The notes under the pieces were generated by a model. That model did not search any database and had not been told where the DNA came from. It worked only from the letters and a program-made list of their open reading frames with translations. From IMG/VR virus record IMGVR_UViG_3300029720_000461: a stretch of DNA of 64,000 nt; one strand, given 5' to 3'. This document shows, in pieces, positions 7,250 to 51,400 of this stretch. Positions within the stretch are counted from its first letter, which is position 1. Every line of letters begins with the position of its first letter. The DNA comes from a virus. Taxonomy: Duplodnaviria > Heunggongvirae > Uroviricota > Caudoviricetes. The position numbers were made by a program, and so were the translations under genes.

Positions 7250-7318
7250 ACATCCGTGGTGTAATAGTAACATGACAGTTTCCACTGTAAGCTGAAGGTT
7301 CAAGTCCTTCCGGGTGTG
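7250..7318 (+). tRNA. tRNA-like, probable pseudogene (aberrant anticodon arm)
   Basis: Acceptor acatccg/cgggtgt, D stem gtgt/acat, T arm gaagg-ttcaagt-ccttc; the only good anticodon-arm pairing acagt/actgt leaves a 4-nt loop (ttcc); total 69 nt. Confidence 0.4.
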
Positions 7319-7440
7319 CTTTAAGGATATAACACTTGATATATCTGACAGTACTTAAAGATATTAAAAAGTGTATCGTGAAAGCGAAAGGGAAAATGTG
7401 CAAATAAGACCCTTATACGATTGCAATATATCCTTAATAA

Positions 7441-10698: not shown

Positions 10699-11001
10699 AT
10701 GATTATGAGTAATTGTGGTCTTGTTGTAAATAAAAACGATATTAACACATACTTTCAAAGTTTTATTAAACCTAGAATTTTTGACGCTGAATGGCATATA
10801 AGCTTAGCGTCAGATTTTCTTAATATAATTGATAAAGATGAATTTAAGTTAGATGATTTATGTAATCCTAAATACATAAAAGATGTTCTTAATGATAATA
10901 AAGATAATGAATACACTAAAGCTGTCCTCTATAGAAAAAATCCTGAAATGTATATATCGGGAATATTTAGATTGTATGATTTATACTTAAAGAGCAAATA
11001 A
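10699..11001 (+). CDS. hypothetical protein (paralog of 12829..13131)
   Basis: Shared motif D..FHI.LA..FL..ID.DE ... PE.YIS..F with the 12829 ORF. Confidence 0.5.
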   Translation: MIMSNCGLVVNKNDINTYFQSFIKPRIFDAEWHISLASDFLNIIDKDEFKLDDLCNPKYIKDVLNDNKDNEYTKAVLYRKNPEMYISGIFRLYDLYLKSK

Positions 11002-11092
11002 TCAAGGATGACGGTTACGGATTAGTATTTTAATAATAAAGGAGAGTGGTTTGTATGTTTAGTGATTTTAGAAATTCAATAGGAGTATAAAA

Positions 11093-11165
11093 GGATTGTA
11101 AGCTAACTCGGTAGAAGCGTCTGTCTGAAGAACAGAAGGAATTGGTTCGACACCAATACAATCCA
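11093..11165 (+). tRNA. tRNA-Phe(GAA)
   Basis: Acceptor ggattgt/acaatcc; anticodon arm tctgt-ctgaaga-acaga; T arm attgg-ttcgaca-ccaat; overlaps and invalidates the minus ORF 11030..11224. Confidence 0.8.
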
Positions 11166-11284
11166 TTAGCACTGCTGAAGTGGTTGTAAATGTAATTGTC
11201 TGAGTTCTTTACAATCAGGTGCAAAACAAAATCAGATATATCAGACTATTTCTTCAGCAATATATATCTGATTATATTAAATAA

Positions 11285-11813
11285 TGCGGGATAGAGCAGT
11301 TGGAAGCTCGCAAATGTATTATTTAAGTAAAGGAGAGGTATGTTTCATGGATTCTCCAAAAAATATGGGAAACAAAGCAGAGATAGTTGTTATATCAGAA
11401 TTTATTAAAAATGATATACCTGTTTCAATTCCTTTTGGACAAAATGAACCATATGATTTAGTAATTGATACAAAATATGGATTTAAGTCTGTTCAAGTAA
11501 AACATGGAACTTATAGAAATGGTTGCGTTGTTGTAGATATAAGACATCGAATAGGATATTCTAAAATAGAATATAGTACATATGATGGCAAAGCTGATTA
11601 TATCGCAATATGGTGCGAAGAATTAAATACTTGCTATTTATTAGATATTAAAGAATGTAATGGAAAAACCAATCTTAGATTAAGAATTGATAATCCTAAA
11701 AATAATTCTTGCATTTCAACTATAGTTTGGGCTAAAGATTATGAATTTTCTAATAAAGTTCTTTTACTAAAATAATACATTTGAGGTCACAGGTTCAAGT
11801 CCTGTTCCCGCTA
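11285..11813 (+). tRNA. interrupted tRNA gene (5' half 11285-11315, 3' half 11779-11813) split in the anticodon loop by a 463-bp ORF-bearing insertion
   Basis: 5' half has canonical geometry: acceptor tgcggga, U8A9, D arm gagc-agttggaa-gctc, G26, anticodon-stem strand caaat. 3' half: atttg, variable aggtc, T arm acagg-ttcaagt-cctgt, acceptor tcccgct. The two anticodon-stem strands extend into a perfect 12-bp helix caaatgtattat/ataatacatttg. Confidence 0.5.
11347..11775 (+). CDS. PD-(D/E)XK-like nuclease (Hjc/endonuclease-like) encoded inside the tRNA insertion
   Basis: Motifs EPYDLVID ... KSVQVKHG (PD...(D/E)XK spacing); AGGAGAGG RBS 8 nt upstream; fills almost the whole insertion. Confidence 0.45.
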   Translation: MDSPKNMGNKAEIVVISEFIKNDIPVSIPFGQNEPYDLVIDTKYGFKSVQVKHGTYRNGCVVVDIRHRIGYSKIEYSTYDGKADYIAIWCEELNTCYLLDIKECNGKTNLRLRIDNPKNNSCISTIVWAKDYEFSNKVLLLK

Positions 11814-11859
11814 CTGGTTGTTCCCCGACAGCCTATTTAGATTAAATATAAACACTCGT

Positions 11860-11933
11860 TCTGATTTAGTTTAATGGTAAAACACCTGTAGTCAAATACG
11901 GGAGATTAAGGGTTCGATTCCTTTAAGTCAGAA
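11860..11933 (+). tRNA. tRNA (paralog of tRNA-Thr at 7441) with 8-nt anticodon loop; identity uncertain
   Basis: Acceptor tctgatt/agtcaga and D arm near-identical to 7441; the best anticodon arm cctgt-agtcaaat-acggg has an 8-nt loop; one extra nt between T stem and acceptor. Confidence 0.4.
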
Positions 11934-11939
11934 TCGGTG

Positions 11940-12830
11940 ATGTCGGTATTATTATTGAGAAGTTGCTTGCAATAGTCAGTAATAGTATTGGATAAGCCGT
12001 AATAAAAAAATAACAGATACCCTAGTGAAGAAGGGCTGTCACCCTGCTAGGACATTCTTAGAGTAGTCTGTATTAAGAAGGATACCTTTTAATATAGGAT
12101 TTAAGTGACATTATAATTGATAAGTCCACTACTTATTAAGAAGATGGAGCTTGAAGGTTACGGAAAGTACCAATAGTTAGGAATGGTGTATCTATACAGT
12201 TTAATATAATGCCGCAACAGTGTGGGGAGAGCAATAGACGCTTGAGAAGAGAAGAACCTTAAGTCTTAGTCTTGTGGTGGGATTGAGCAGCTTAAGGAAT
12301 ACCAAACAATCTCCTTCGCTATGATGTTGTAGAAATACAACTATAACACACAGCAGCGGACAAGTAGCCCATAGGCGTGAAATGAGAAATTGGATGAATT
12401 AAACCAATATAAAATTCTGAATGATGGGTGAAAGTTGCAGGTAGAAAATCCTGTCATAGCATTGGGGAGAAATCCTGTGGTAAGAAGTTTAGAGGTCGCT
12501 CCTTTAAGCTCAGACTTATCATCTATGTAGCATAATAATAGCGGACTGTATAGGATAAGGCGAAAGCCTATCTGTTTTTATAATATTAGTCCTTTTGATT
12601 TAGGTTCTAGTTCCGTAAGGAGTATGGGTTCGACTCCCATAGAGGGCATTCACCTTAGCTCAATTACAATAAGTCTTAATAAGTAGCTATGATGACGATT
12701 ATACTGAAAATTTAGAATAGTTGTATACCTTTTGGGTGATTGACTATAGCGGTATCCATTTGTAGAGCAACCCCTTGTTGCGGGGTAGTATTCGGTAGAA
12801 GTCCGAGGGTGATTTATAAGGAGAAAATAT
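11940..12830 (+). ncRNA. candidate large structured non-coding RNA (GC-enriched, ORF-free block beside tRNAs)
   Basis: About 890 nt with no ORF of 60 aa or more on the gene strand, visibly higher GC than flanks, many GNRA-like and paired segments, a tRNA-like T arm plus acceptor-like 3' end (atggg-ttcgact-cccat agagggc) at 12615-12647. Confidence 0.25.
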
Positions 12831-13131
12831 GAAACTAACAAAGAAACAAATAATTGAATATATGAATAAATATATTCGAGGGTATTTATATGATGCTGAT
12901 TTTCACATATGTTTAGCAACAGAGTTTTTGAAATTGATTGACTGTGATGAAGTTGATATTGTTGAATATCAGAATATACCGTTAATTTTGCAGGTTATAT
13001 CTGAGCATAGTGAGACAGAAACCGCAAAATCTATTCTATGTCGCAAAACGCCTGAGTTGTATATTTCAGCATTGTTTGCAACATTAGAAAGACGTATCAA
13101 TGAGTATATTAATATGACGAAAACAGTATGA
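12829..13131 (+). CDS. hypothetical protein (paralog of 10699..11001)
   Basis: AAGGAGAA RBS; shared motifs with the 10699 ORF. Confidence 0.5.
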   Translation: MKLTKKQIIEYMNKYIRGYLYDADFHICLATEFLKLIDCDEVDIVEYQNIPLILQVISEHSETETAKSILCRKTPELYISALFATLERRINEYINMTKTV

Positions 13132-13251: not shown

Positions 13252-13494
13252 CTTAATCCGGTACAGGATGCAGATTATAAAAGCAGAATTGTATTGGATA
13301 TCAGTGGAAATCTGAATTATTAAGTGCAATATGTAATGGGACAACGTATTGTATGATAGCTGTGATAATCAGTATTTGCGAACAAAGAACGATGGGAAAA
13401 ACATGTCAGCAGGTGCAGGGTAAGTGTGCATAGCTTATCACAGAGGTTTCGATACCAAAGGGCATGTTTTCGTTCATTCCCGAAAGGAGAAGAT

Positions 13495-14073
13495 ATGTAT
13501 TATTTACTGGATTATGAAAATATTGGTTCGTTAGGGCTTAAAGGGATTGACAGCCTTACAGATAAAGATATTGTGTGTATATTTTATTCAGAAAATGCTC
13601 ATACAATTGATTTGGAAGCAATAGAAATGTTTAAGAGTACAAAGGCGGCAGTCAAATACATAAAAGTAAAGAAAACCGCACCGAATTATGCAGATTTTCA
13701 GATTGTTACCCTTACAGGCTTAATTTTAGGAAAAGACAGTAAAGAAAAGGTTGCAATTATAAGCAATGATAAAGGCTATGTAGCAGTTATTGATTATCTT
13801 AAGGAAGACTGTGTAACAGGAACAAACAGAATAATTGAGCTTGCATCTACAATTGCAGATGTTAAAGGAAGTAACAGAAAAATAGAAAACAATGATTTAA
13901 AACAGAATCATAATTTCTATGATATTAATGATAAGAGAGTGAAAAATGTCATAAAAAGAAGTACAAATAAAGGTATGCTGAAATTAAACCTTATTGAAAG
14001 CTTTGGACGAATAGACGGACTTGAGCTTTTTAACAGACTTGAAAAAGATTTCAGACCTAGAAAAAGAGTGTAA
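13495..14073 (+). CDS. NYN/PIN-like domain protein (putative RNase)
   Basis: ATG at 13495 with AAAGGAGAAG RBS; N-terminal YLLDYENIG and later ISNDKGY resemble the NYN (LabA-like) acidic motifs. Confidence 0.4.
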   Translation: MYYLLDYENIGSLGLKGIDSLTDKDIVCIFYSENAHTIDLEAIEMFKSTKAAVKYIKVKKTAPNYADFQIVTLTGLILGKDSKEKVAIISNDKGYVAVIDYLKEDCVTGTNRIIELASTIADVKGSNRKIENNDLKQNHNFYDINDKRVKNVIKRSTNKGMLKLNLIESFGRIDGLELFNRLEKDFRPRKRV

Positions 14074-16825: not shown

Positions 16826-18712
16826 ATGGATAAACAAAAATTTACTTATAAAGTATATGATGCTAAAACAAGAAGCTTCATATATGAAGAGGATTTCACA
16901 AGTGATAATCCTTTTAAAGATATAGCAGAACGGATGAGTAAAGAAGACATATCACATGGGAGTCTTTATATCGTGGCAGAAAATGAAAACGGACAGGAAG
17001 CTGCATATACGATTGTAAAGAAAAGTGGTACAAAATTCGTTAAGTATGAACATTGTGATTTTCCTTTATCATATATAGATTTTGATATTGAGCCAAGATA
17101 TCTTACATGTATTGATGAAGTGTATAACCACTATAAGTATTATGAGATAACCTTTGATAAGGATAATTTAAGGACAAATGTAAGATATGGACGTATAGGT
17201 GCTGATAAGAATGATACATTTGGTGAGCGTGAATATGATTATCCTTTATCTATGTACTGGGTTAAATATTATGAGAAATTGTCAAAAGGCTATGAAGATA
17301 AAAGTGAACTTAAGGATTTTGATAACAGGCAGAAAAAAGGAACTGAATATGAACCTGTTAAGGATAAATACTCAAAATCACTTATTGAGTTCCTTATAAG
17401 AAAGCAGAAAGACTATGTTGAAAGTAATTATTCAACCGGTGCAGCATTTTCAATGGAAGCTGTAAAAAAATCTGAAAAGATACTGGAAGAGTTAAAGGCA
17501 TATGCTGATTCATCATTTTCAAATAAACAGTTTAAAATAAGAGAACTCTTTAAGGAGCTTGTAACAATATTGCCAAGAAGAATTGCAGATGTATCAAACT
17601 ATCTTAATTATATAACAGGTTTAAGTTCTGAAGCTTTAATGGAACATATTGAACAGGAAGAAGACCTGCTTAATAACTTTAAGGACTTATATGTTAAAAA
17701 AGAAAATGAAGCTGAAGAGAAAGCTGATAATAAAGACATACTTGAAGCTAATAATTTAACAGCCACATGTACGGATTATAAAGACATACATATGATAGAA
17801 GATAAGCTTGATAAAGATATGGCGGCAATGAAGACAGTATTAGCTGTTAAAAATAAATATACTAATGACCGTTACATAGCATGTAAAAAAGAAAAAGGCA
17901 TTGAGAACAGGGGATGTCATTTATTATGGCACGGAAGCCGTACAGAAAACTGGTGGAGTATATTTAAGAATGGTTTAACACTTAATAATAACGCAATAGT
18001 AACAGGAAAGATGTTCGGACAGGGATTATACTTTGCTCCTAAAGCTGAAAAGAGTATGAATTATACATCAAGTTTAGGAAGCTATTGGACAGGCGGTAAT
18101 GATAAAACTGGCTTTATGGCGTTATATGCAGTTGCTATGGGTAAACCTTATGAAATTGACCATGCACTTAGTTCATATTTTACTGAAAAGGATTTAAAGC
18201 ATGGCTGTCATTCAGTATGGGGAAAAGCAGGAAGACATTTAAGAAATGATGAATGCATTATTTATGATGAAAGACAGTGTGACATTAAGTTTTTGCTTGA
18301 GGTTGACAGGGAAAGAGAAAAGTATCTTACACCTGAATTTATAAAAGCTGCAAGGAATATAAAACTCAATCAGTTAAAAGCAGATAAAAACGGATTAAGA
18401 GCTTATATGAGCTTAAGAACTCCTGACAGTACTTTTAGCAGACTGAATATGGATAAAAATAATAAAGTCGAATTTATTTATACTTATGATAACACACTTA
18501 CAATCAAGACATATGATAAGGAACTTAAATCAAGTGAAAAGGAACTTAAATTTAATTCATATCAGACTGATTATCTTAAAATGATGTTTAAAGAAAATTT
18601 CACTTCTAATGACAGGGAATTTGATATGTTACTTGAAGAAAAACAGAAGGAAGTACAAAAGCCAAAGACTAAAGTAAAAAAGAAAGAAATTGAAATGTCT
18701 CTGCTTGCATAA
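16826..18712 (+). CDS. WGR-like + PARP-catalytic-domain ADP-ribosyltransferase
   Basis: N-terminal YYEITFDKDNL...VRYGRIGAD (WGR-like); catalytic H-Y-E signature: LLWHGSRTENWWSIFKNGL, GQGLYFAPKAEKSMNYTS, NDECIIYDERQCDIKFLLEV (cf. PARP1 HGS / GIYFA / NEYIVYD). Confidence 0.75.
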   Translation: MDKQKFTYKVYDAKTRSFIYEEDFTSDNPFKDIAERMSKEDISHGSLYIVAENENGQEAAYTIVKKSGTKFVKYEHCDFPLSYIDFDIEPRYLTCIDEVYNHYKYYEITFDKDNLRTNVRYGRIGADKNDTFGEREYDYPLSMYWVKYYEKLSKGYEDKSELKDFDNRQKKGTEYEPVKDKYSKSLIEFLIRKQKDYVESNYSTGAAFSMEAVKKSEKILEELKAYADSSFSNKQFKIRELFKELVTILPRRIADVSNYLNYITGLSSEALMEHIEQEEDLLNNFKDLYVKKENEAEEKADNKDILEANNLTATCTDYKDIHMIEDKLDKDMAAMKTVLAVKNKYTNDRYIACKKEKGIENRGCHLLWHGSRTENWWSIFKNGLTLNNNAIVTGKMFGQGLYFAPKAEKSMNYTSSLGSYWTGGNDKTGFMALYAVAMGKPYEIDHALSSYFTEKDLKHGCHSVWGKAGRHLRNDECIIYDERQCDIKFLLEVDREREKYLTPEFIKAARNIKLNQLKADKNGLRAYMSLRTPDSTFSRLNMDKNNKVEFIYTYDNTLTIKTYDKELKSSEKELKFNSYQTDYLKMMFKENFTSNDREFDMLLEEKQKEVQKPKTKVKKKEIEMSLLA

Positions 18713-25699: not shown

Positions 25700-27140
25700 G
25701 ATTTTAGCCATGACTAAGTGAGCATTTACAAAAAATCAGAATATGCTGAAATATGTATTTAGTGATAAATACATAAAATAAATATGTTTTATTGAATCTC
25801 GATTACATCTTCTATTTTACATTTAAGTTTACAGATGTTTTCAATAGTTTCAAGTGAAATTATTATATTTAAGAAGGAAATGATATTATGGCAGAAAAGG
25901 CTTATAAATATAGAATATATCCAAATAAAAATCAGAAAGAACTTATTGCTAAAACATTTGGATGTTGCAGATTTGTGTATAACTATTATCTTGATAAACG
26001 AATAGAAATGTATGAGAATGATAAGACCACATTTACATATTACATGTGTTCCAAAGATTTGACACAATTGAAGAAAGAATATGAATGGCTTAAAGAACCA
26101 GATAAAGATTCTTTACAAAAGTGTTTAAAAGATTTAGATATGGCATATCAGAAATTTTTTAAGGAACATACTGGTTATCCGAAATTTAAGTCAAAAAAGA
26201 ATAGGTATCAGTCTTATAGAACAAGTTACACAAAAACAACTGCTGGCGGGAATATAATGTTTTTAAATAAACATATAAAACTTCCAAAGTTAGGATTAGT
26301 TAAAATAAGAGATAAACAAGTTCCACAAGGAAGAATATTAAATGCCACAATATCACAAGAACCAAATGGACACTACTACTGTTCTCTATGTTGTACAGAT
26401 GTAGAATTTAAACAGTTGCCAAAAACCAATCAGAATATTGGAATAGATTTAGGGCTAGTGAATTTTGCAATATTATCTGATGGAAAAACAATTGATAACC
26501 TTCATTTTTTTGAAAAATCAGAAAAGAAACTTGCTAAATTACAACGTGAATTATCAAGAAAAGCAATTGGTAGTAATCGTTGGAATAAGGTGAGAATCAA
26601 GGTTGCAAATTTACAGAAACATATTTCTAATCAAAGAAATGATTTCTTACAGAAACTCACAACAGAAATTATAAGAATGTATGATGTAATTGCTATTGAA
26701 GATTTAGATATCAAATCTATGAAAGAAACAGATTCTATCATTCGCAATAAACGAATTGGAGATGTATCTTGGTCTGAATTTCGTAGAATGTTAGAATATA
26801 AGTCTCAATGGTATGGAAAGAAATTATCTGTAATAGACAGATATTATCCTTCTTCACAAATTTGTCATTGTTGTGGTTATAAAGATGGTAGAAAATCAGA
26901 AGATATTCGGTCTTGGGCTTGTCCTAAATGTAATTCAAAATTAGATAGAGACATTAATGCTGCTATAAATATTTTGAATGAAGGATTAAGAGTTATAAAT
27001 GTTTAAATAGTATATAAGAACCGTAGGAACTACGGGGATAGCTCGGTGATACTTAACTCAATAGAGTTATTGACCGAGAATCATGTGACTTTAATCATGT
27101 GAGGTTCAAAAGCATACATTAAATTATGCTGAAGAAAAAA
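25700..27140 (+). mobile_element. IS200/IS605-family element carrying solo tnpB (no tnpA); boundaries approximate
   Basis: tnpB with hairpin-rich flanks; no Y1 transposase ORF adjacent. Confidence 0.4.
25888..27006 (+). CDS. tnpB: TnpB (IS200/IS605-family OrfB, RuvC-like RNA-guided nuclease)
   Basis: OrfB N-terminus YKYRIYPNKNQ; RuvC-I GIDLGL; C-terminal zinc finger CHCCGY...CPKCNSKLDRDINAAINI. Confidence 0.85.
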   Translation: MAEKAYKYRIYPNKNQKELIAKTFGCCRFVYNYYLDKRIEMYENDKTTFTYYMCSKDLTQLKKEYEWLKEPDKDSLQKCLKDLDMAYQKFFKEHTGYPKFKSKKNRYQSYRTSYTKTTAGGNIMFLNKHIKLPKLGLVKIRDKQVPQGRILNATISQEPNGHYYCSLCCTDVEFKQLPKTNQNIGIDLGLVNFAILSDGKTIDNLHFFEKSEKKLAKLQRELSRKAIGSNRWNKVRIKVANLQKHISNQRNDFLQKLTTEIIRMYDVIAIEDLDIKSMKETDSIIRNKRIGDVSWSEFRRMLEYKSQWYGKKLSVIDRYYPSSQICHCCGYKDGRKSEDIRSWACPKCNSKLDRDINAAINILNEGLRVINV

Positions 27141-27764: not shown

Positions 27765-29600
27765 ATGGACTATATAGAACACGGGCTTGCAGTACTTGCA
27801 ATTATTATGTATTTTTTTAACGGACATAAAAAGCTTGGTACTTATTCAGAAAAATTATTTAATGCATATCTGGTTGTTAATATGCTGTATCTTTTATTGG
27901 ATGCAGCATTACTTTTATGTGCTAAAAAAGCATTTAATACAGATGTTTTATGCAGGATACATACAGCAGCACTTGTTGTACTGATATACTTTATGCTTTT
28001 ATATACACTAGCTGAGACAGGAAACTTAAAACAGAATGGAAAATTGTATATTATAAATGCAGGAGTATTGATTATAACTCTTACGCTTGTATTTGTTCTG
28101 CCTGTAAAAAATGCAAGAGGATTGTCAGTGACAGCAGGACTTTTAGTGTCTCTTTATTATGTGTGCTTTATTTTTATAACAGGTATAATAAGAAACAGTG
28201 TAATGACAAAGAAAAAGATTAAAACAATGATGTTCTGGATATTGCTGTGGTATTGTGCAATAATAACAGAACTTAAGTTTTCTAACACACATGTTACAGG
28301 ATTTGCAGGATTTATGGGAGCATTGGCAGTATTTTTTGAACTGGAAAATCCCCAGACAAGGCTTGACAGATGTGGTCTGTTTAATCTTGCAGCCTTTGAA
28401 GAATATTTTCTTTACCTGAAGGATAACGGTAAAAAATGTAATCTGATATTTTTAAAGATATATGATTTATCACATGACGAAAGCCTGAAAATATCAAAGC
28501 TGATAACGGATTATCTTCTAAGCCTTGAAATTGGTTTATGCTTTAAAAAAACAGAATGCAGTTATATTATAATTGTTCCATCAAACGTATCAGTCAAATC
28601 TGTTTATGAAGATGTAAGAAAACATACAAAAACGTATGTAAAAGAAATAATGAAGGAAAGGGCTGATGAGTTTTATCCTTCTTTTACCATTGTTAAGGAT
28701 GCTGAAATAATCAATGAAGCAGCCAGACTGTTAAAACTGGTAGATGAGCAAAAAGAAGGAAAATTAAAAAAGAATGATACATATTCAGTTATGGATAAAA
28801 ATGATTTTAAATTGCAGGCTGAATATGAAAATCTGAAGAGTAAAATAGAAAAAGCTGTTAATGATGACAGGATTACAATTTTTCTACAGCCTATATACAG
28901 TACAAAAGAAAAAAGAATAATTTCAGCAGAAGTCCTTATGAGGCTTATTAATGAAAATGGAGAAGTTCTGCCACCGTATAAGTTTATAACAGCAGCAGAA
29001 AAATCAGGGCTTATCATACAGCTTGAAAGCATTGTATTTAAAAAAGCATGTGAGTTTATTAAAACACATGATATGGATGCTCTTGGGCTTAAGTATCTTG
29101 AAATTAATCTGTCTGTAAAAAAGGGTGAAAGTAAAAAGCTTGTAAAAGAATATGAAGAAATTGTCAGGGAATACGGCATTGAACATGAAAAAATAAATCT
29201 TGAAATAACTGAATCTGCTTCACTTAATGAAAAACACAGCCTGTTGGATAATATGTCGAAATTTATTGAAAAAGGAATAAAATTTTCATTAGATGATTTT
29301 GGAAGCGGTGAAAGTAACTTGAATTATATAATTGATATGCCGGTATCCATTATAAAATTTGATAAAGATATGACAGATGCATATTTTAAATCGGAAAAAG
29401 CAAAAATAGTTATGGACAGTGCAATTAATATGATACATAAGCTTGGACTAAAAACAGTTGTTGAAGGTGTTGAAACAAAGGAACAGTTTGACGCAATGTT
29501 AAAAATACAGACTGATTATATACAGGGATATTATTTTAGCAAGCCTCTTGATGTTAATGATTTTGTAGAATATGTTTTAACATCTGAAACAAAAAAATAA
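27765..29600 (+). CDS. membrane-anchored EAL-domain c-di-GMP phosphodiesterase
   Basis: About 6 N-terminal TM helices; EAL-domain motifs FLQPIYS, EVLMRL, LEITES, FSLDDFGSGESNLNY, QGYYFSKP. Confidence 0.75.
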   Translation: MDYIEHGLAVLAIIMYFFNGHKKLGTYSEKLFNAYLVVNMLYLLLDAALLLCAKKAFNTDVLCRIHTAALVVLIYFMLLYTLAETGNLKQNGKLYIINAGVLIITLTLVFVLPVKNARGLSVTAGLLVSLYYVCFIFITGIIRNSVMTKKKIKTMMFWILLWYCAIITELKFSNTHVTGFAGFMGALAVFFELENPQTRLDRCGLFNLAAFEEYFLYLKDNGKKCNLIFLKIYDLSHDESLKISKLITDYLLSLEIGLCFKKTECSYIIIVPSNVSVKSVYEDVRKHTKTYVKEIMKERADEFYPSFTIVKDAEIINEAARLLKLVDEQKEGKLKKNDTYSVMDKNDFKLQAEYENLKSKIEKAVNDDRITIFLQPIYSTKEKRIISAEVLMRLINENGEVLPPYKFITAAEKSGLIIQLESIVFKKACEFIKTHDMDALGLKYLEINLSVKKGESKKLVKEYEEIVREYGIEHEKINLEITESASLNEKHSLLDNMSKFIEKGIKFSLDDFGSGESNLNYIIDMPVSIIKFDKDMTDAYFKSEKAKIVMDSAINMIHKLGLKTVVEGVETKEQFDAMLKIQTDYIQGYYFSKPLDVNDFVEYVLTSETKK

Positions 29601-38466: not shown

Positions 38467-39645
38467 ATGTTTGATAAGAAAAATAAAACATCTGATACAA
38501 AAGAAAATTCAACAGACAAGGAATTTGCAGCATTAAAAGAAAAAGACAAAAACAATCAGCAGGATAAAATGTCTATTGAAGAATTAATTAACAACATAAA
38601 AGATACATTATTTATAGAACTTACAGAAGAGATGAATGATGATTCAATTACTGATATAGAATGGGATGGTGACTGTCTATGGCTTAAACAGATAGGCACA
38701 GGATGTTATTTATCGCCTAAAAAGTTGTCAAAAAATTATGTTGATAACTTGGCAATCCGTTTAAGTAATATCATGGGAAGAAATTTCAATCAGGCAAACC
38801 CTGTACTGGAAGCAGATACAAAAACACTCCGTATATCAATTACACATGAAAGCAGAAGTGGGAAAAAATCAATTACAATCAGAAAGCTGCCGGTTGTAAT
38901 GAGATACGGACATGAAGATTTGGTAAATGCAGGAACTATTCCTGAAAAGCTTCTGAATCTTTTAGAAAACTGTGTAATAGCACACTGCACCGTGCTGATA
39001 GGTGGTACACCACAGGCAGGAAAGACAGAACTGCTTAAATACCTTACCAACTTTATACCGGCAAATGAAAAGGTTATGACAATTGAAGATAATTCAGAGA
39101 TTCATTATAAGGAGCTTCATCCAAATAAAAACTGTACGCCGTTTATCGTTGATAAAAGGTTTGGATACTCAGAGGCTATCAAGATGTCTTTAAGGCATAA
39201 CACCGACTGGGTACTGATTTCAGAATCACGAGGCAAAGAAGTTAAGGAACTGATTAACGTACTCAATACAGGTCTGCATTGTATGACAACCCTTCATCTT
39301 GATGAAGTAAGTGATATACCTGACAGATTATTTAGTATGCTTGAAGACCAGAAGAACAGCAGATTTATTGATAACGTATATAAATACATTGATGTTGGAC
39401 TTGTAATTGCTGTTGATAAAAAGCAGGAAAGAAAAATTATTGATTTTGGCTTTTTTGAGCGTAATGAAACAGGCAATCATTACAGACCTTTTTATAACAT
39501 AGATGACGGAGTAATTCCTGAAAAGGACATGCTTCCTGAAAACATGAAGAAGATATTTAAAAGGGCGGGAATAGATAATCCATATGAAAGACCAAAAGCT
39601 TGTGCAGGAGCAATACCGGTAGAAAAGGAAAGGAGTGCTGAGTAA
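38467..39645 (+). CDS. CpaF/TadA/VirB11-family secretion ATPase
   Basis: Walker A GGTPQAGKTE; TIEDNSEI (Asp box); His-box-like region; family-typical N-terminal domain. Confidence 0.7.
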   Translation: MFDKKNKTSDTKENSTDKEFAALKEKDKNNQQDKMSIEELINNIKDTLFIELTEEMNDDSITDIEWDGDCLWLKQIGTGCYLSPKKLSKNYVDNLAIRLSNIMGRNFNQANPVLEADTKTLRISITHESRSGKKSITIRKLPVVMRYGHEDLVNAGTIPEKLLNLLENCVIAHCTVLIGGTPQAGKTELLKYLTNFIPANEKVMTIEDNSEIHYKELHPNKNCTPFIVDKRFGYSEAIKMSLRHNTDWVLISESRGKEVKELINVLNTGLHCMTTLHLDEVSDIPDRLFSMLEDQKNSRFIDNVYKYIDVGLVIAVDKKQERKIIDFGFFERNETGNHYRPFYNIDDGVIPEKDMLPENMKKIFKRAGIDNPYERPKACAGAIPVEKERSAE

Positions 39646-41201
39646 TGGAAGGAAATATAAAAACAACATATGATAATGATAAAAAGCCTAATCTGTTTGA
39701 AGAAAAACTGGTGCAGATATTACATTATTTTTCATTCAAGCAAATGAAGAAAGATATCTATGATTACGGATACAGCATTTCACCTTTTAAATATTTCCTT
39801 GGATTTGTGGTCGGAATAATTCTTGTTGCAGCATACTGTATATTCAGTAAGCTTGATTTTGTATACATAATATTTGAAATTGTACTTCTGATATGCCTTA
39901 TGCCATTTATAGTAAGAACGAAATTTAAAGGAATGTATCAGGAAAAAAGATTTAATGAAGTTGATATATACCTGCATCAGATGATTTTTTCATTTCAGAA
40001 GCAGCCTAAAATATTATCTTCATTGGAAGATACAGAGAAGGTAAGTACAGGAAAGTTAAAAAATGTAATAAGAAAAGCAATAATCTGTTTAAGACAGACA
40101 GAAGCAGCGGATGCATATGAAGAAGCTCTTGATATCATATACAAGGCATATCCAAATGACCGAATAAAAAACTTAAATAAGTTTATGATACAGATTGAAA
40201 GACAGGGCGGTAATTATGGAACTTCACTTGATATTCTGCTAGGGGATATTGATAACTGGGTAAACAGAACATATAAGGAACAGACAACTGTTAAAACAAT
40301 AAAGACCACGATTGTTATAGGAACAATAATAAGTTTTATCATTTCCAGTGCAAGTATGATATTTTCAATAATAATACATTACAATGATACCATGTCAATT
40401 ATGAGTTTAGGAAATCTTGAAGACATATTATTATATCAGGTAACTACTGCTATATTTATAGCCGCAAGTATGCTGTTTTTAATATATGCCTTTACAAAAT
40501 ATAATTATGACTGGATTACAAAATCGGTTGATGAAAAAAGCGTTCTAAGAAATTACAAAAACGCAACAGACTTTAATCCGACAGTTTTCAGAATAAAAAG
40601 CATTCCTGTATATCTTGTATTTGCGTCTGTGTCATTGTCAATGTTTTTTATTAATGCAGTACCGTACAACAAAGGAATATCTGTATTTTTAGGTATATTT
40701 ACATTTTATCTTATAATCAGTCCGTCATTTACCAAAAAGAGTGCTTATAAGATAACACAGAAAAATATACAGAACTCATTTTCAGAGTGGTTGAGAGATG
40801 TATCAATTAATCTTCAGAGAGAACCGTTATTATCAGCTGTAACAGACAGCTATGAAAACTGTCCTGTCGCAATAAAGCCGGAGCTTGAAATATTTATCAG
40901 ACGAATACAGGAAGAGCCTACGGCAGTTGAACCGTATTATGAGTTCTTGGCTAGATTTCATTTAACTGATGTATCAAGTGCCGTGCGAAATCTTTATTCA
41001 TTGTCAGATATGGATGATGAACGTAAGGAAGAAAACCTTGGACAGCTCACAAAGCGTAATTATGCAATAATTAATGACAATGAGATAAAATCAATGAATG
41101 ACACAACATCTGCAATGCGTTTTTCTGAATACATACCAGTGTTTATTGCATGTGGAAAGCTTGCATTTGATATTATGAATCTTTTGGAATGTATGATGTA
41201 A
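39645..41201 (+). CDS. TadB/TadC-like (T2SS-F family) polytopic membrane protein
   Basis: 518 aa, several TM-helix clusters, directly downstream of and coupled to the CpaF-like ATPase. Confidence 0.45.
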   Translation: MEGNIKTTYDNDKKPNLFEEKLVQILHYFSFKQMKKDIYDYGYSISPFKYFLGFVVGIILVAAYCIFSKLDFVYIIFEIVLLICLMPFIVRTKFKGMYQEKRFNEVDIYLHQMIFSFQKQPKILSSLEDTEKVSTGKLKNVIRKAIICLRQTEAADAYEEALDIIYKAYPNDRIKNLNKFMIQIERQGGNYGTSLDILLGDIDNWVNRTYKEQTTVKTIKTTIVIGTIISFIISSASMIFSIIIHYNDTMSIMSLGNLEDILLYQVTTAIFIAASMLFLIYAFTKYNYDWITKSVDEKSVLRNYKNATDFNPTVFRIKSIPVYLVFASVSLSMFFINAVPYNKGISVFLGIFTFYLIISPSFTKKSAYKITQKNIQNSFSEWLRDVSINLQREPLLSAVTDSYENCPVAIKPELEIFIRRIQEEPTAVEPYYEFLARFHLTDVSSAVRNLYSLSDMDDERKEENLGQLTKRNYAIINDNEIKSMNDTTSAMRFSEYIPVFIACGKLAFDIMNLLECMM

Positions 41202-45425: not shown

Positions 45426-48400
45426 ATGAAATTAAAGAGAACTTTTAAGACACTGTTAATGATAATCGCAACAGTAATGAGTGTTGTATCAGGCATACTT
45501 ATTGATTCAGGAACACTTGCATATGCAGCCACGACTTATACCTTAACGCTTAACTGGGATGATGGTGTTGAATGGGTTGCTACTGATAAAGATGGTATTT
45601 ACAGGTGGGAAAAAGGCGGTTCAAAGACATTTCAGGCAGGTTCTAAGGCTTATACTTATGTCAAGCTTAAAAATGGTGCAACAGTCAAATCATTCTTTTC
45701 AAGGCAGGAAAATAAAGACTGGACTGATTATACATATACGTCAGGAAGCATATGCTATGATACATGGACAATGTACAATAACAGAAACGTGGACATATAT
45801 ACATCTGTATCATCTTCAGCAGATGTGTCTTATGACTGGGATAACCTCGTAACAAGCTCAAAACATTATCATTCAAGCAATGGAAATGAAGCATCTTGGA
45901 GTAATTTAAGGGATGACCTTGGAAGGTCTCCTGCACCGATTTATTCAATTTACTATAAGCTACAGGAAAATAGGTACAGGGAAACCTGCTATGGAGATAA
46001 TCAGGAAGATAAAGACTTCGGCGGTTATGAAATAATGTTAAGGACAGAAGACAGCCATAACAGTTATTGGTATGGACAGTCCTCATATGCAAATGGAGAT
46101 AGATTTGACGACTGGTACAGGGATGAATTTGAAGGAATAAAGCTTTCAAATCTTGCAATTGTACCTGTCCAGATAAAGGGAGATAAGTTTTTACAGATTA
46201 ACATAAGCGTTAAGAACACCAATTCATATGCAAAAGAAATATCACTGGCAACATGCAGTGATATACAGGTTGCAGATGATGATAATGCAGCTACATTCTT
46301 TAATGGTAACGGCTTTACAATGACAAACATGTACTGCGAAACATCAGACAATTATCATGGTGGCACAATTCCTGCGGCAACACTTAATGTATATGCGAAG
46401 GATGTACCGGGATATGTAACTGATGCGGATGCAGTATATATAGGACATTTTGTATACAGAAAAGAGCATGTATGGTTAAACAATGTACTTGGTGATAAGG
46501 CAACGAATTATAACAAGTATAAGCATGGCGGAACATCAGGAGAAGGTGAATTGGATTCAGGTTTTTCAATTGCATGGAAGAACAGAACAATTGCAGCAGG
46601 TCAGACACAGACTTACAGCTACATCATAGGCATAGGAAAGTACAATTCAGATAATAAGATAACATTTAATGCAAATGGTGGAGAATTAAAGACTCCGGGA
46701 ACAAGCATCAATAACCCAAGCGGAAATTACAGTAATAAAGTTACGGTAACATATGGTACAGATACATATTCATCAATGAGTAATGATATACCAGAAAGAG
46801 CAGGTTATACATTTGACGGATGGTGGACAACACCTAATGACAGCAATGCAAGCGTAATGGTATATGATGCATCAGGAAAATGTAATAATGACTGTAATTA
46901 TTGGAAAAATAATCAGTGGCAGGGAACTAATGATTTAACCGTATATGCACACTGGAAAGCAAACACATATACAGTACGTCTTAACACAGGCGATATCCCG
47001 TCATCAGAATTGACAAAACTGACAGAAACAGCATCAACTGAAGGATGGACATGGAATGAGAACGGCAGATATTTTTCAAAGGCATTTGTACAGAATGAAA
47101 ATAATTACCTTCCGGGAGTAAATAAGTTCTTCAGTGCTAATAATTATGAATCAGTAGGCAGTAAAGTAACAGACAAGTATTTTGTACAGGATAAGACAAA
47201 GAATCCTACCAAGGTATTGTATAACTGGTGGACATCAGCATCAGGTGGTACTGATATAGGCAGGGGAAAAAAGATTTATAACAACTTGTATGAGATATCA
47301 AAGGACAACAGTGGAATTGTTAATCTTTATCCGCACTGGATGGGATATACAACAGTGTTTAATTACACAGACAATGCCCCTGCTAATACAGCCGGTCTAA
47401 CGGTAACAATCAACAACAGCATTAATGATGGCATGGATAACTGTCTGTATCAGGTATATGGAAGCTGTTTCTTTTATAAGGGAACAGACGGCGAGTATCA
47501 CGATTATGAAGGTACAAATCCTGACTTAAAGGTAACAGCAAGTATTCCAGACAGTAACGGATATAAATACATCTTTAATGGCTGGCATCATAAAAACTGG
47601 AATTACCTTACAGATGGATTAGGAAAGCTTACATATAAGAATAATTATAATATCGGACAGGGTAAAACTTCATACAGTTTATCACCACATTTTTCAAGAG
47701 TAGGAATTAATTATAACGTAAGACTTAACGCAAATGTACCTGATACAGAAAGTACATTACAGGTACTACATCAGAATGGAATATCATCATACATTTACAA
47801 CAGCACTAGCAGATACTTTTCAAGAGAACTTACATATGATGATTCGCAGGATATGTTATCACCTGACGTATATTCACTTAAGGGATATCATTTGGTAAGC
47901 AGAAGTAACTGGTATACGGAAAAAACAGGTGGTAATACAGTATTAGCACCATGCAATAATACGGAAGCAGAATATCCGGACTGGGCTGAAAACAACTGGA
48001 ATCTTACAACTGAAGATGGAGCAACAGTAGACCTGTATGCAAGATGGCAGGCAAATAATTATAAGATAGCATACAACTTAGATGGTGGTACATATGGTAC
48101 ATCACATCCGACAAGTGCAGACTATGATACAATGGTAACAATAGATAACCCGTCAAAGGCAGGTTATACATTTACAGGATGGACAATTACAGGGTATGAC
48201 AGTACTGCTTCAGGACACAATGCATCTGCATGGACAGAAGAGACTGGTACATCTTATAAGAATTTAACTGCAACAGACGGAGCAACAGTTACATTTACTG
48301 CTACATGGAAAAAGGAAGCTCCTAAGACAGCTAATTTACAGACAACAGGTGATGTGGGAATAAAAGCAACATCACATTCTGATAAGACTGTTGTAAATAT

Positions 48401-51400
48401 TGGAAGCCATGTACAGGTAAGTGCAGTTCTTAATACCGGTTATGTATTTAAGGGATGGTACAATGGAAATGTTAAGGTATCTGATGATTTAAGCTTTGTA
48501 TATACAATGCCTAATAAAGATACGATACTTACAGCTAAGACAGAGATTAAATGGTATACAATGACATTTGACCCAAATGGCGGTATATTAAAGAATCCCG
48601 GTAATAATCTTTATAATGCAGAGTGGAAGAATGGAAACACCGTGTCAGTTGGATGGAATATAAACGACTTCTGTTACATGAATGGTGATATACCAACACG
48701 AAAAGGCTACAGATTTACAGGCTGGTATCTGGGAAGTGAAAGCGTATATAATAAGTACGGAATAGCAATAAAAAATTCAAGCCTTTACAGTTATGATACA
48801 GATTATCATTGGAGATATGATGGAAATGTAACAGTAAAAGCAGGATGGGATGCTATAAATTACAAGATATCATACAAAGTAGTCACTGGTGCAGGAAGCA
48901 TACCTTCACAGACAGTACATTATGGTGATTCATTCACATTGGCAGATGGAAATGCATTTACATATACAGGACATACATTTAGCCACTGGTATGTAAGACG
49001 AAGCTCTGATAAGAAAGTATTCTGTTATGATGGTAACTGGCATACTACAGATGGAAGTGACTTGTATGGTTCAGATGTTTCAAACTGGTATCCGTATAAT
49101 AATAGTGGACTTACATTTGAAATGAATGATTCATGGATAAGAAGTGACATAGATGCAGATGAAGAATTTGTTTTCTGGGGATTCTGGGCAGCAGATGAAT
49201 ATAATATCATTTATAACTTAAATGGTGGTACATTAAATGGTAAGACTAATCCAGATACTTATAATATAGAAACACCTACATTTACACTTAATAATCCAAC
49301 AAGAACAGGATATATATTTGCAGGATGGTGTGAAAGTAAAGATACATCATATGTATATAACAGAAATGCTAATGAAGTTATTAAAAAAGATGAGTCAGAT
49401 TCAACATCCTGCTTTATCCCTGAATGTTATGCGTCTTTAGATTACGCACCAGTATTTGACCCTGCATATTATCTTGCAAAATATCCGGATTTAAAATCGG
49501 CATACGGAGATGATGCAAATAAAGCATTAAGCCATTTTGTAAAGTACGGAATGAAAGAAGGTCGTCAGGGTTCAGCAGAATTTGAAGTGAATGCATATAA
49601 AGCCAAGTATAAAGATTTAAAAGATGCGTTTGGTGATAATTTGCCGAAATATTATATACACTATATACTGGCAGGCAAATCAGAAGGAAGAACGATATCA
49701 CAAGCATCAATTAGTATATATCAGGGAAGCATAGGTAACAGAACTTATACTGCTACATGGACACCTATTAATTATACAATCAACTATGACCTTAATGGTG
49801 GAACAGTTGCGGTAAGTAATCCTACAAGTTACAATATTGAAACACCTACATTTGCTCTTAATAATCCTATCAGATTAGGATATGTGTTTGCCGGATGGAC
49901 AGGCAGCAATGGTACTACACCACAGAAAAATGTAAGTATATATAAAGGCAGTACAGGAAACAAGTTTTATAAAGCTAACTGGACAGCGGCAGATGTAGGA
50001 TATACCGTTAATCATTATGTAATGGATATAAATGGTAATTATCCAAGTACACCTACAAAGACAGAAAGACTGTCAGGATTTACGGATACTTCAGTTACAG
50101 CAAAAAGATTAAGCCTTGGAAACGGATTTACTTATCCTGATGTACAGACTGTAAAAATAAAAGCAGATGGAACTACGGTAGTAAAATATTACTATACAAG
50201 AAACAAATACACATTAGACCTTAACGGACTTATAAATGGAACACTAAGGGGAAATCTTGTAGACGTAGTAAAAAATCCGATAACAGGAGCAGAAGACAGA
50301 CATACAGCCGGTACAGCGGTTGTTACTGTAAATGGAACTGTTGTAGGAAATAAAGTCACTGATTACTGTAATGAAGTTTACTATGGAAGCAGTATAAGCA
50401 TTATCACAACAGCTGAAAGCGGATATAATATTATTGATAACAGTAATGTAAACTTTAAAATGCCGGCTGAAGGCAAAACTGTAACAGTTACAATAAATGC
50501 AAAAGATACCAAGTATCTTGTAAGGCACTGGAAGAAAAATGTTAATACTGACAGTAAGACTTATAATGAAAACAGTTTAAATGACAGCAATTATACAATG
50601 TATGATGCTGAATATTTAAACGGCAAGGCATACAGCTGGGTAAAACCTGTTGTAAGGACACTGGAAGGATTTACATATAAAGGAGTTCTTCCAAGTGAAG
50701 GAACGGCTTATGTGAAGCCTGACGGTACAACAGTAATTGATGTGTATTATGCAAGAAATACATATACAATAAATGGTGGTAACGTAAATGCCAATGTTGA
50801 ATATGGTAACGGAATAAGCAGTGTAAGCGGATTAAAGACATATGAATATGAGCAGAAGGTAACACTTACGGCTAATTTAAAAACAGGATATCACTGGCAT
50901 GGTACAGATAAATGTGCTTCATCAGGTAAGTATCCTACAGGCTGGTATAGCAGAAACAATTCAGGTGTTGACGGCATCTTAACAGACAATACAACATATA
51001 ATTCACAGACAATTAAGTTTAATATGCCTGCAAGAAATGTTTATCTTGGAGTTAAGGCTACAAACAACAGCTATACGGTTGTATATAATAAAAATCAGCC
51101 GGTAGAGCCTAAGTCAATAAGTAACGTAACAGGAAGCACTGAAAGCCAGACATTTATTTATGATGAGAGTCAGAATTTAAGGAATAACGGATTTACTCTT
51201 ACAGGTTATACAAGAAAGTCAGGCTGGATGACAAAGCCAAGTAAGAACGGTAATGGAACAGCAGATTTTTCTTACGGACAGTCTGTAAAGAACCTTACAA
51301 CTGTTAATCTTGGTACGGTTAATCTTTATGCAATATGGGAAGACAATGCACCGGAAGAGATTAATATAAGCAGTACAAATAATTTTGCAGCCGCACAAAC

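Follow-up and report, generated by a model that had tools for sequence, protein, structure and literature searches.

In a 64,000-nucleotide (nt) stretch of viral DNA (IMG/VR record IMGVR_UViG_3300029720_000461; hereafter, the window), a tRNA gene at positions 11285-11813 is split in its anticodon loop by a 463-nt insertion encoding a homing endonuclease that sequence and modelling assign to the I-Ssp6803I family. The insertion has neither the space nor the conservation for a ribozyme. The tRNA halves retain an intact cloverleaf, the ends of the insertion pair into a 24-bp rod, and both structures covary within the clade to which the endonuclease belongs. The CAU anticodon has been lost, and near-identical copies of the element lie in differing flanks. 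The explanation that we favour, and hold with moderate confidence, is that a ribozyme-less mobile cassette of the I-Ssp6803I family occupies an initiator-type tRNA-Met gene and that its transcript, instead of being spliced into a decoding tRNA, folds into a tRNA-shaped RNA that silences itself. The host of the cassette is a very large phage-like element.

The features described here are on the plus strand of the window. The tRNA 5' half (11285-11315) was read directly as the acceptor strand tgcggga, U8 and A9 (ta), a D arm of gagc, agttggaa and gctc, G26 and the 5' strand of the anticodon stem, caaat. The 3' half (11779-11813) consists of the 3' strand of that stem, atttg, the variable loop aggtc, a T arm of acagg, ttcaagt and cctgt, the acceptor strand tcccgct and the discriminator A. 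A parse of the stems found each of them fully paired (acceptor 6/6, D 4/4, anticodon 5/5, T 5/5) next to a U1xU72 mismatch at position 1:72, and the conserved loop elements, GG in the D loop and ttcaagt in the T loop, are present. In place of the anticodon loop lies the insertion (11316-11778). It holds a single open reading frame (ORF; 11347-11775), flanked by 31 nt on its 5' side and 3 nt on its 3' side, and its non-coding part amounts to these 34 nt only. With a 7-nt loop in place of the insertion, the exon pattern is GCTCGCAAAT-N7-ATTTGAGGTC.

Default ARAGORN and Rfam called no tRNA at 11285-11813. Using its intron search, ARAGORN reported a tRNA at 11285-11814 with a 456-nt 'intron', in agreement with the direct reading and the stem parse of both halves and of the insertion. 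An earlier note, made from the sequence alone, had described the two halves and a 463-bp anticodon-loop insertion with one ORF behind a strong ribosome-binding site, and had proposed this ARAGORN run; re-reading the sequence reproduced its coordinates and features, and AAGGAG lies 5' of the ORF. When the halves were joined around a CAT-containing loop that we supplied, the best similarity was 78%, to phage tRNA-Met genes. Bacterial initiator tRNAs have a mismatch at 1:72, three G-C pairs at the bottom of the anticodon stem and the anticodon CAU. The window tRNA has a UxU mismatch at 1:72, its anticodon stem, caaat/atttg, lacks a G-C run, and CAU is absent. Public gene calls begin the ORF at an in-frame ATG at 11284, in the tRNA 5' half (window 11284-11775, plus strand). 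The resulting 163-amino-acid (aa) product belongs to cluster P0001, which has 108 member sequences, and the tRNA half is masked in annotations.

The homing endonuclease gene (11347-11775) encodes 142 aa. The product matched Pfam PF11645 (PDDEXK_5) with E = 7.8e-26 and 91.2 bits, the cut-off being 26.1, over positions 3-137 of the 138 in the profile. Its sole PDB relative by sequence was 2OST, the structure of I-Ssp6803I (E = 2e-3 using the single sequence and 1.9e-8 using a 13-sequence profile). Foldseek was used to compare an AlphaFold (AF2) model of the protein (pLDDT 88) with the PDB: the top four matches were chains A-D of 2OST (E = 1.7e-10, TM 0.76), followed by SPARDA nuclease domains and then by Hjc, and the tRNA-splicing endonuclease EndA was not among the structural matches. 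Residues E12, D37, Q50 and K52 are invariant across 18 homologues and align with YDLV...VQVK of 2OST. Judged by sequence and predicted fold, the product is a member of the I-Ssp6803I/PF11645 family of homing endonucleases, a known kind of enzyme. The PD-(D/E)XK assignment made earlier was therefore correct, and the nuclease-fold similarity that was to be checked is present; the suggestion of a new kind of endonuclease element fails as far as the enzyme itself is concerned.

In 2001, Bonocora and Shub reportedly placed the group I intron of I-Ssp6803I within tRNA-fMet of Synechocystis. I-Ssp6803I cuts the anticodon stem-loop of the intron-less tRNA-fMet gene. The enzyme recognises a pseudo-palindromic 23-bp site (PMC3384342), to which a tRNA stem-loop, being inherently palindromic, is suited as a target.

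We next consider the helix that closes the insertion. A repeat search identified inverted-repeat arms at 11311-11334 and 11760-11783 (24 nt, 92% complementary), and a perfect 14-mer of the arms occurs at just these two sites in the 64 kb (chance expectation 0.3). Folding the whole 530-nt RNA yielded the cloverleaf and a rod of 14 bp, an AxA mismatch and 10 bp (z = -3.15). The rod appears in both the minimum-free-energy and the centroid structures and extends the anticodon stem in register, with no bulges. The duplex energy of the two ends was -27.5 kcal/mol, as compared to -12.0 ± 3.1 kcal/mol in shuffles (RNAduplex, z = -5.0). A 12-bp inverted repeat had been noted previously; it does continue the anticodon stem and close the insertion, but the repeat search and the fold extend it to the 24-bp rod.

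The 5' strand of the rod (11311-11335) comprises the anticodon stem, 9 nt, the mismatched A11325 and agtaaaggag. Its 3' strand (11759-11783) comprises the last four to five codons of the ORF ((V)LLLK), the stop codon TAA (11773-11775), the 3 junction nt and the anticodon-stem strand atttg. Both strands are supported by the repeat search, the folds, RNAduplex and the covariation described below. Sequence and fold together place the Shine-Dalgarno sequence, AAGGAG(AGG), at 11330-11338, 8-11 nt 5' of the ATG, with AAGGAG (11330-11335) falling in the distal segment, of 10 bp, of the rod. The rod looks like a helix that closes an mRNA and occludes its Shine-Dalgarno sequence rather than a splice-site motif. 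Intervening sequences of the RNase III type are closed by a helix of about 20 bp or more, a length that the 24-bp rod attains.

Protein searches and context look-ups yielded about 70 related loci, referred to by L numbers. In the endonuclease tree, the window, L003, L004, L065, L008 and L066 form one clade. Covariation was evaluated in an alignment of these six members containing the tRNA halves and 20 nt of each insertion end, counting cloverleaf and rod. The rod is uninterrupted and in register over 21-26 positions in four of the six (window, L003, L004 and L066); in L008 it has 12 in-register positions with one mismatch, and in L065 about 12 bp behind a small bulge. Overall, 89.7% of cells were paired, as compared to 71.5% in shuffles (0 of 500 reached the observed value), and pairing fell to about 44% when the partner was slid by 1-3 columns. 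Changes on both sides that preserve pairing were found in 25 of 39 pairs: 14/19 in the extension beyond the anticodon stem, 5/5 in the anticodon stem, 3/6 in the acceptor stem and 3/5 in the T stem. The conserved arm TTATTTAAGTAA, which is complementary to the codons for LLK and the stop, is separated from the anticodon stem by 0-4 junction nt, depending on the lineage, and these are matched on the opposite strand. Cognate arms pair at -17.1 kcal/mol, the mean for non-cognate arms being -7.3 kcal/mol. Since the arms covary, keeping complementarity and not sequence, they behave as a nucleic-acid helix and not as a protein-binding site; on the strength of these alignments, we read the covariation as the signature of a selected helix and not of protein-bound inverted repeats.

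No intron or small ribozyme was matched by Rfam at E≤10 in positions 10900-12300 or at E≤0.1 in 19 related loci. Rfam 15 also missed, even at E≤10, the evident group I intron of the related locus L051. Its silence is thus weak proof, and size and synonymous variation were used instead. Synonymous positions were compared in 20 homologues aligned by codon: they vary over the full length of the ORF, and nowhere was such variation found to be suppressed. Since synonymous sites vary freely, no conserved ribozyme core of about 200 nt is hidden in the ORF, and the 34 non-coding nt leave no space for one. Moreover, the 3' end of the insertion (aaaataatac plus stem) is devoid of G over its last 12 nt, however the junction is slid, and so lacks the terminal G that group I introns have, together with a U ending the 5' exon; the same holds for L002 and L021. 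These results uphold the earlier statement that the insertion fits no group I architecture; the Infernal-type check recommended with it returned no match, as it did for the control intron of L051. A bulge-helix-bulge (BHB) intron in the window was ruled out by the continuous pairing, which runs for 14 bp from the anticodon stem without two 3-nt bulges separated by a 4-bp helix.

Rebuilding an anticodon by sliding the junctions was also rejected, as no solution was consistent across relatives. In the window, sliding produces the loops GUAAUAC or GUAUUAC (anticodons AAU/AUU); in L004, CUAAUAA or CUAUUAA (AAU/AUU); and in L003, UAAGUUA or UAAUUUA (AGU/AUU), both without U33. Every loop of L008 lacks U33 or a purine at position 37, and L066 offers the anticodons AAA, UAA, UUA or UUU. 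CAU occurs in none of the six clade members, and the clade does not offer what a decoding tRNA is expected to have: an anticodon common to relatives, set in a loop of 7 nt that bears both U33 and a purine at 37. No gene for RNA ligase, RtcB, EndA or RNA repair was detected among 20 large ORFs of the window. The sole candidate nuclease among these is a PIN7-domain protein (window 13426-14073, plus strand; E = 1.8e-23), which lies in the tRNA/ROOL cluster 1.6 kb 3' of the split tRNA. Based on the absence of a common identity among the rebuilt loops and of a ligase or splicing endonuclease in these ORFs, we judge a spliced decoding tRNA from this locus to be quite unlikely. Restoration of the tRNA by an unfamiliar splicing route found no support: CAU is gone, the loops are inconsistent and no splicing enzyme is nearby.

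The endonuclease family occurs in four arrangements. In the first, the gene lies inside tRNA group I introns of about 650 nt (L050-L054). For example, tRNA-Arg(UCU) at L051:1311-2035 has an intron of about 650 nt in which a PDDEXK_5 endonuclease is encoded, as also in L050 and L052-L054; the L051 intron has the core agactacacg...gatatagtcc and a terminal G before ctaagcag. In the second, the gene lies inside a canonical BHB intron between positions 37 and 38 of tRNA-Val(UAC). This locus, L049:448-941, lies on a contig that is a 1.9-kb tRNA cluster; it encodes a homologue of 26% identity in a 419-nt insertion whose junctions, UCGCC/CUUA/CA/helix ... helix/UAAG/AUU/GGCGA, form a textbook BHB, and predicted splicing at 37/38 would give a CUUACAU loop. 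In the third, the gene stands free between tRNA genes (L030, L035 and L069), once directly 3' of an intact tRNA-fMet.

The fourth arrangement is that of the window: a 436-473-nt cassette without a ribozyme in a tRNA anticodon loop. It is shared, with all four tRNA stems recognisable, by at least nine distinct loci in addition to the window, and position 1:72 is mismatched in all of these (UU, CA, AA or CU) except one that has a G-U wobble. Three further loci (L058, L067 and L068) are decayed or incompletely parsed. In representative sequences of the ten distinct architectures that were parsed, stem mismatches are confined to 31:39 or 30:40, beside the insertion; the lineage-E variants L010 and L057 each have one extra mismatch, in the acceptor stem and the T stem, respectively. 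In lineage E, the ORF continues into the anticodon stem on its 3' side. Decay was seen elsewhere as an indel (L067), an abnormal D arm (L068) and the loss of both D arm and 5' anticodon strand (L028). The loops of L002, L021, L058, L067 and L068 would rebuild CUCAUAA or a near variant. That a CAU loop is retained just in these other lineages, scattered over the endonuclease tree, suggests that it is the ancestral state.

In L028:484-966 and L029:489-971, the endonuclease gene lies between a 5' acceptor strand, tgcgcgg, and a 3' part that retains its anticodon strand, the T arm and the acceptor strand. These loci have lost both D arm and 5' anticodon strand, and yet their 5' acceptor strand can still pair 7/7 with the 3' end (shuffle frequency 0.004). 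The RNA would form an acceptor/T-arm minihelix around the ORF, a tmRNA-like topology. Since the 7/7 pairing persists after loss of the D arm, pairing of the ends outlives tRNA function; from these two loci, the pairing of the two ends seems to matter.

The 530-bp element recurs with 0-3 differing positions in five other contigs (47-533 kb), the flanks of which are 92-96% identical. The 463-nt insertion is 99.8-100% identical in the same contigs, and the two tRNA polymorphisms of this lineage are both in the D loop. Among the samples in which the element occurs are those behind ERZ827498, ERZ827522, OLRY01, OLRO01 and QWCY01. As far as sequence comparison can tell, a near-identical element in diverged flanks fits recent homing.

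According to the explanation that we favour, the endonuclease would cut uninterrupted tRNA-Met alleles in co-infecting relatives, and repair would copy the cassette in. The cassette would be transcribed within the tRNA cluster as a tRNA-shaped body with its anticodon stem prolonged into the 24-bp rod, and the insertion would not be excised from the RNA to yield a decoding tRNA. Ribosomes could load just while the 3' end is still being synthesised. Once transcribed, the last codons would pair with the Shine-Dalgarno region, the rod would zip to the anticodon stem, the cloverleaf would form and translation would stop, keeping the level of endonuclease low. The tRNA-shaped ends may allow RNase P and 3'-end enzymes to trim the RNA from the cluster transcript, leaving neighbouring tRNAs undisturbed, and the length of the rod makes it a plausible RNase III site. 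Control through a ribosome-binding site sequestered in RNA structure is well established for I-TevI/II/III, segB and mobE, and is the rule among the homing endonucleases of phages (PMC2988022).

Several points weigh against this scheme. Every step at the RNA level is inferred, and the action of host RNase III and RNase P on the cassette RNA is assumed. Families may have entered different functional tRNAs, and the intact stems and the compensatory changes that separate the families could in part be a legacy of those targets and not of selection after insertion. Good stems persist in the rod-less lineages E and F, and lineage E has disruptive polymorphisms. An uninterrupted allele of exactly this tRNA, which the earlier note had suggested seeking in related genomes, was not found in exact scans of IMG/VR using both exons and the neighbouring tRNA, in the INPHARED phage collection, which holds no close relative of the region, or by synteny; the five near-identical loci are all occupied by the insertion. 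In the syntenic contig L071, followed via the upstream ORF, tRNA-Phe leads directly to the downstream tRNA and the ROOL RNA, and both tRNA and cassette are absent. The syntenic contig L072 also lacks this tRNA; it has other tRNA-Met genes, among them an intact one elsewhere in the cluster with U1xU72 and a CTCATAT loop. An uninterrupted initiator-type tRNA-Met gene lies at L072:895-967.

The same data bear on four other explanations. A selfish endonuclease gene might simply have killed a dispensable tRNA, leaving decaying halves and a functionless rod and cloverleaf. The loss of the anticodon speaks for this, as do the free-standing copies beside intact tRNAs, the missing unit of L071 and the decay in relatives (the acceptor mismatch of L010, the T-stem mismatch of L057, the indel of L067, the D arm of L068 and the losses of L028). 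We nevertheless consider a dead tRNA unlikely: a 24-bp rod without function is not expected to hold its register in six diverged lineages that differ by indels, or to have compensatory changes at 14 of the 19 pairs of its extension, the mismatches of representatives are confined to 31:39 and 30:40 with extra ones just in L010 and L057, and both polymorphisms of the window's lineage fall in the D loop. The opposite possibility, a true ribozyme-free intron from which proteins such as RNase III or another nuclease, cutting in or beside the rod, and an RNA ligase regenerate a working tRNA, is favoured by a perfect, covarying cloverleaf and by parallels elsewhere. The rod joins the halves as flanking helices do in archaeal split tRNAs; L049, a distant relative, has the same endonuclease family inside a textbook BHB intron; and huge Lak phages are reported to have 'enigmatic' tRNA introns without Rfam matches, together with T4 RNA ligase 2 and a CCA-adding enzyme (PMC6784885). 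Against it, the window tRNAs are not in the Lak tables and a Lak identity of the window is not established, the helix has no bulges and hence no BHB motif, and no anticodon common to the clade can be set in a 7-nt loop that has both U33 and a purine at 37. No EndA, RtcB or RNA ligase was found among 20 large ORFs of the window, the fold of the encoded protein matches DNA endonucleases and not EndA, and the lineage-E ORF continues into the anticodon stem on its 3' side. We regard such splicing as improbable. It would amount to a third kind of tRNA intron in phages of bacteria, neither ribozyme nor BHB, in which a double-strand-specific nuclease cuts the rod, the halves are rejoined by an RNA ligase of the phage or the host into a tRNA with an unusual anticodon (e.g. 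A34) or a non-decoding tRNA-shaped RNA, and the endonuclease is a passenger; the chance of this is likewise small.

Both of the remaining explanations are very improbable. A cryptic or highly reduced group I intron, its catalytic core overlapping the ORF, is brought to mind by the prototype of the family, which resides in a group I intron, by distant relatives in such introns (e.g. the 650-nt intron in tRNA-Arg(UCU) of L051) and by the failure of Rfam to detect that intron. It is opposed by the mere 34 non-coding nt and the variation of synonymous positions along the entire ORF, by the lack of G in the last 12 nt for any junction slide, and by ends that form one continuous duplex and not P1/P10. 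A transposon-like element, the 24-nt arms of which would be terminal inverted repeats bound by the PD-(D/E)XK protein, would account for the inverted repeats at the insertion ends and for the 4-nt direct repeat TCAT at the junctions of L058. Other lineages have no consistent target-site duplication, the last codons of the ORF itself have the inner arm as their reverse complement, and the modelled protein closely resembles a homing endonuclease. We rejected this candidate since the arms covary between lineages instead of being conserved.

The cassette shares features with several known systems. Archaeal BHB tRNA introns and the split tRNAs of Nanoarchaeum have in common an insertion in the anticodon loop, a flanking helix that brings the halves together and a dedicated endonuclease. 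The site and the helix are as in the window, and L049 places the family in a canonical BHB; in contrast, the window helix is continuous, without 3-nt bulges, the context is bacterial or phage-like (Shine-Dalgarno sequence, ROOL RNA) and no splicing endonuclease is in evidence. Endonuclease-encoding BHB introns have, to our knowledge, been reported mainly in rRNA genes. In bacteria, rRNA intervening sequences are removed by RNase III. Like the window element, they interrupt a structural RNA gene, sometimes encode an endonuclease, are closed by a long helix and do not always have a ribozyme; whereas fragmented rRNA is functional, a tRNA without an anticodon loop cannot decode. Endonuclease-encoding insertions have also been described in rRNA genes of the candidate phyla radiation (CPR; PMC11270868).

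Closest to the cassette in enzyme and site is the I-Ssp6803I intron of Synechocystis tRNA-fMet (2OST, PMC3384342), which has the same protein family and fold, probably the same kind of host gene, an initiator tRNA-Met, and the same anticodon-loop site. The window insertion differs in having no ribozyme, a length of 463 nt as compared to about 650 nt for ribozyme plus ORF (e.g. L051), a 24-bp rod and no anticodon. The mobE gene in nrdA of Aeromonas phage Aeh1 is an intron-less, intein-less homing endonuclease gene that splits its host gene (PMC3045599; PMC2988022). In both cases, an endonuclease ORF with its own ribosome-binding site has been put directly into a phage gene without a splicing element; that site is sequestered in RNA structure in mobE and is predicted to be so in the window. 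The pieces of the nrdA protein reassemble, whereas the tRNA halves of the window are held by base pairing and a restored function is doubtful. SegB of T4 is a free-standing homing endonuclease in a tRNA gene cluster (PMC2330249). Like the window enzyme, of which L030, L035 and L069 encode free-standing relatives, it is a phage homing endonuclease among tRNA genes, which it targets as the window enzyme is predicted to do; unlike it, SegB belongs to the GIY-YIG family and lies between tRNA genes, not within one. The short 'enigmatic' tRNA introns of the Lak megaphage paper (PMC6784885) do not include the window element. Searches of open-access papers and preprints yielded no account of a tRNA gene interrupted by an endonuclease insertion that lacks a ribozyme, in line with the earlier remark that protein-coding insertions other than group I are not known in the anticodon loop of bacterial or phage tRNAs. 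What appears to be new here is the ribozyme-less, rod-closed tRNA layout common to many phage-like contigs; the enzyme family was known already.

The split tRNA gene lies in a tRNA cluster. A full-length ROOL RNA (window 11997-12589, plus strand; 331.6 bits, E = 1e-75) follows 183 nt 3' of it, with one tRNA between. On the unrelated contig L008, a ROOL RNA (L008:2034-2750, 243 bits) lies about 190 nt 5' of the split tRNA and endonuclease. The intervening tRNA of the window (11860-11933, plus strand; 39 bits in Rfam) has an 8-nt anticodon loop, agtcaaat, for which ARAGORN named no anticodon; its orthologue L071:3960-4033 has tagttaaat. It could be a suppressor or quadruplet-reading tRNA. A second tRNA without an ARAGORN assignment, at 7250-7319 (plus strand), has a two-base 'anticodon', tc, and scored 52 bits as tRNA in Rfam. 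Paralogous 100-aa ORFs at 10699-11001 and 12829-13131 (plus strand) bracket tRNA-Phe, the split tRNA, the following tRNA and the ROOL RNA, and the first of the two has homologues in the related contigs L071-L077, where they mark the corresponding tRNA clusters. Just 5' of the split tRNA, a 119-nt spacer contains an AT-rich hairpin, aatcagatatat ... atatatctgatt (11231-11277, plus strand); the spacer is deleted in L015.

Further away, the window encodes a TnpB-like protein (25888-27006, plus strand) with OrfB_IS605, Cas12f1-like TNB and HTH domains. Cargo that is unusual for a phage-like element was noted at 16826-18712, 27765-29600, 38467-41201 and 45426-53267 (plus strand), the types being a protein with PARP catalytic and WGR domains, an EAL-domain protein, a type II secretion system/type IV pilus (T2SS/T4P) ATPase and platform pair, and a 2613-aa ORF without a PHROG match. 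This gene content is ambiguous, being compatible with a huge phage or with a large plasmid-like element. The tRNA sequences of the window are absent from the tables of the Lak megaphage paper (PMC6784885), and membership of that group is thus not established.

Homing endonucleases are thought, as far as we know, to persist in essential genes only via self-splicing introns or inteins. Here, a known tRNA-targeting endonuclease family sits, in many phage-like genomes, in tRNA genes without a splicing element and with a conserved RNA architecture of its own; the family also includes, in L049, an endonuclease inside a canonical BHB tRNA intron. The cassette family accounts for the failure of standard tRNA finders and Rfam to report these loci. 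Precise excision in RNA, if true, would define a new class of tRNA intron. The family provides a testable case of how endonuclease genes and introns join or separate, and of how a selfish gene may exploit the processing signals of tRNAs and limit its own expression.

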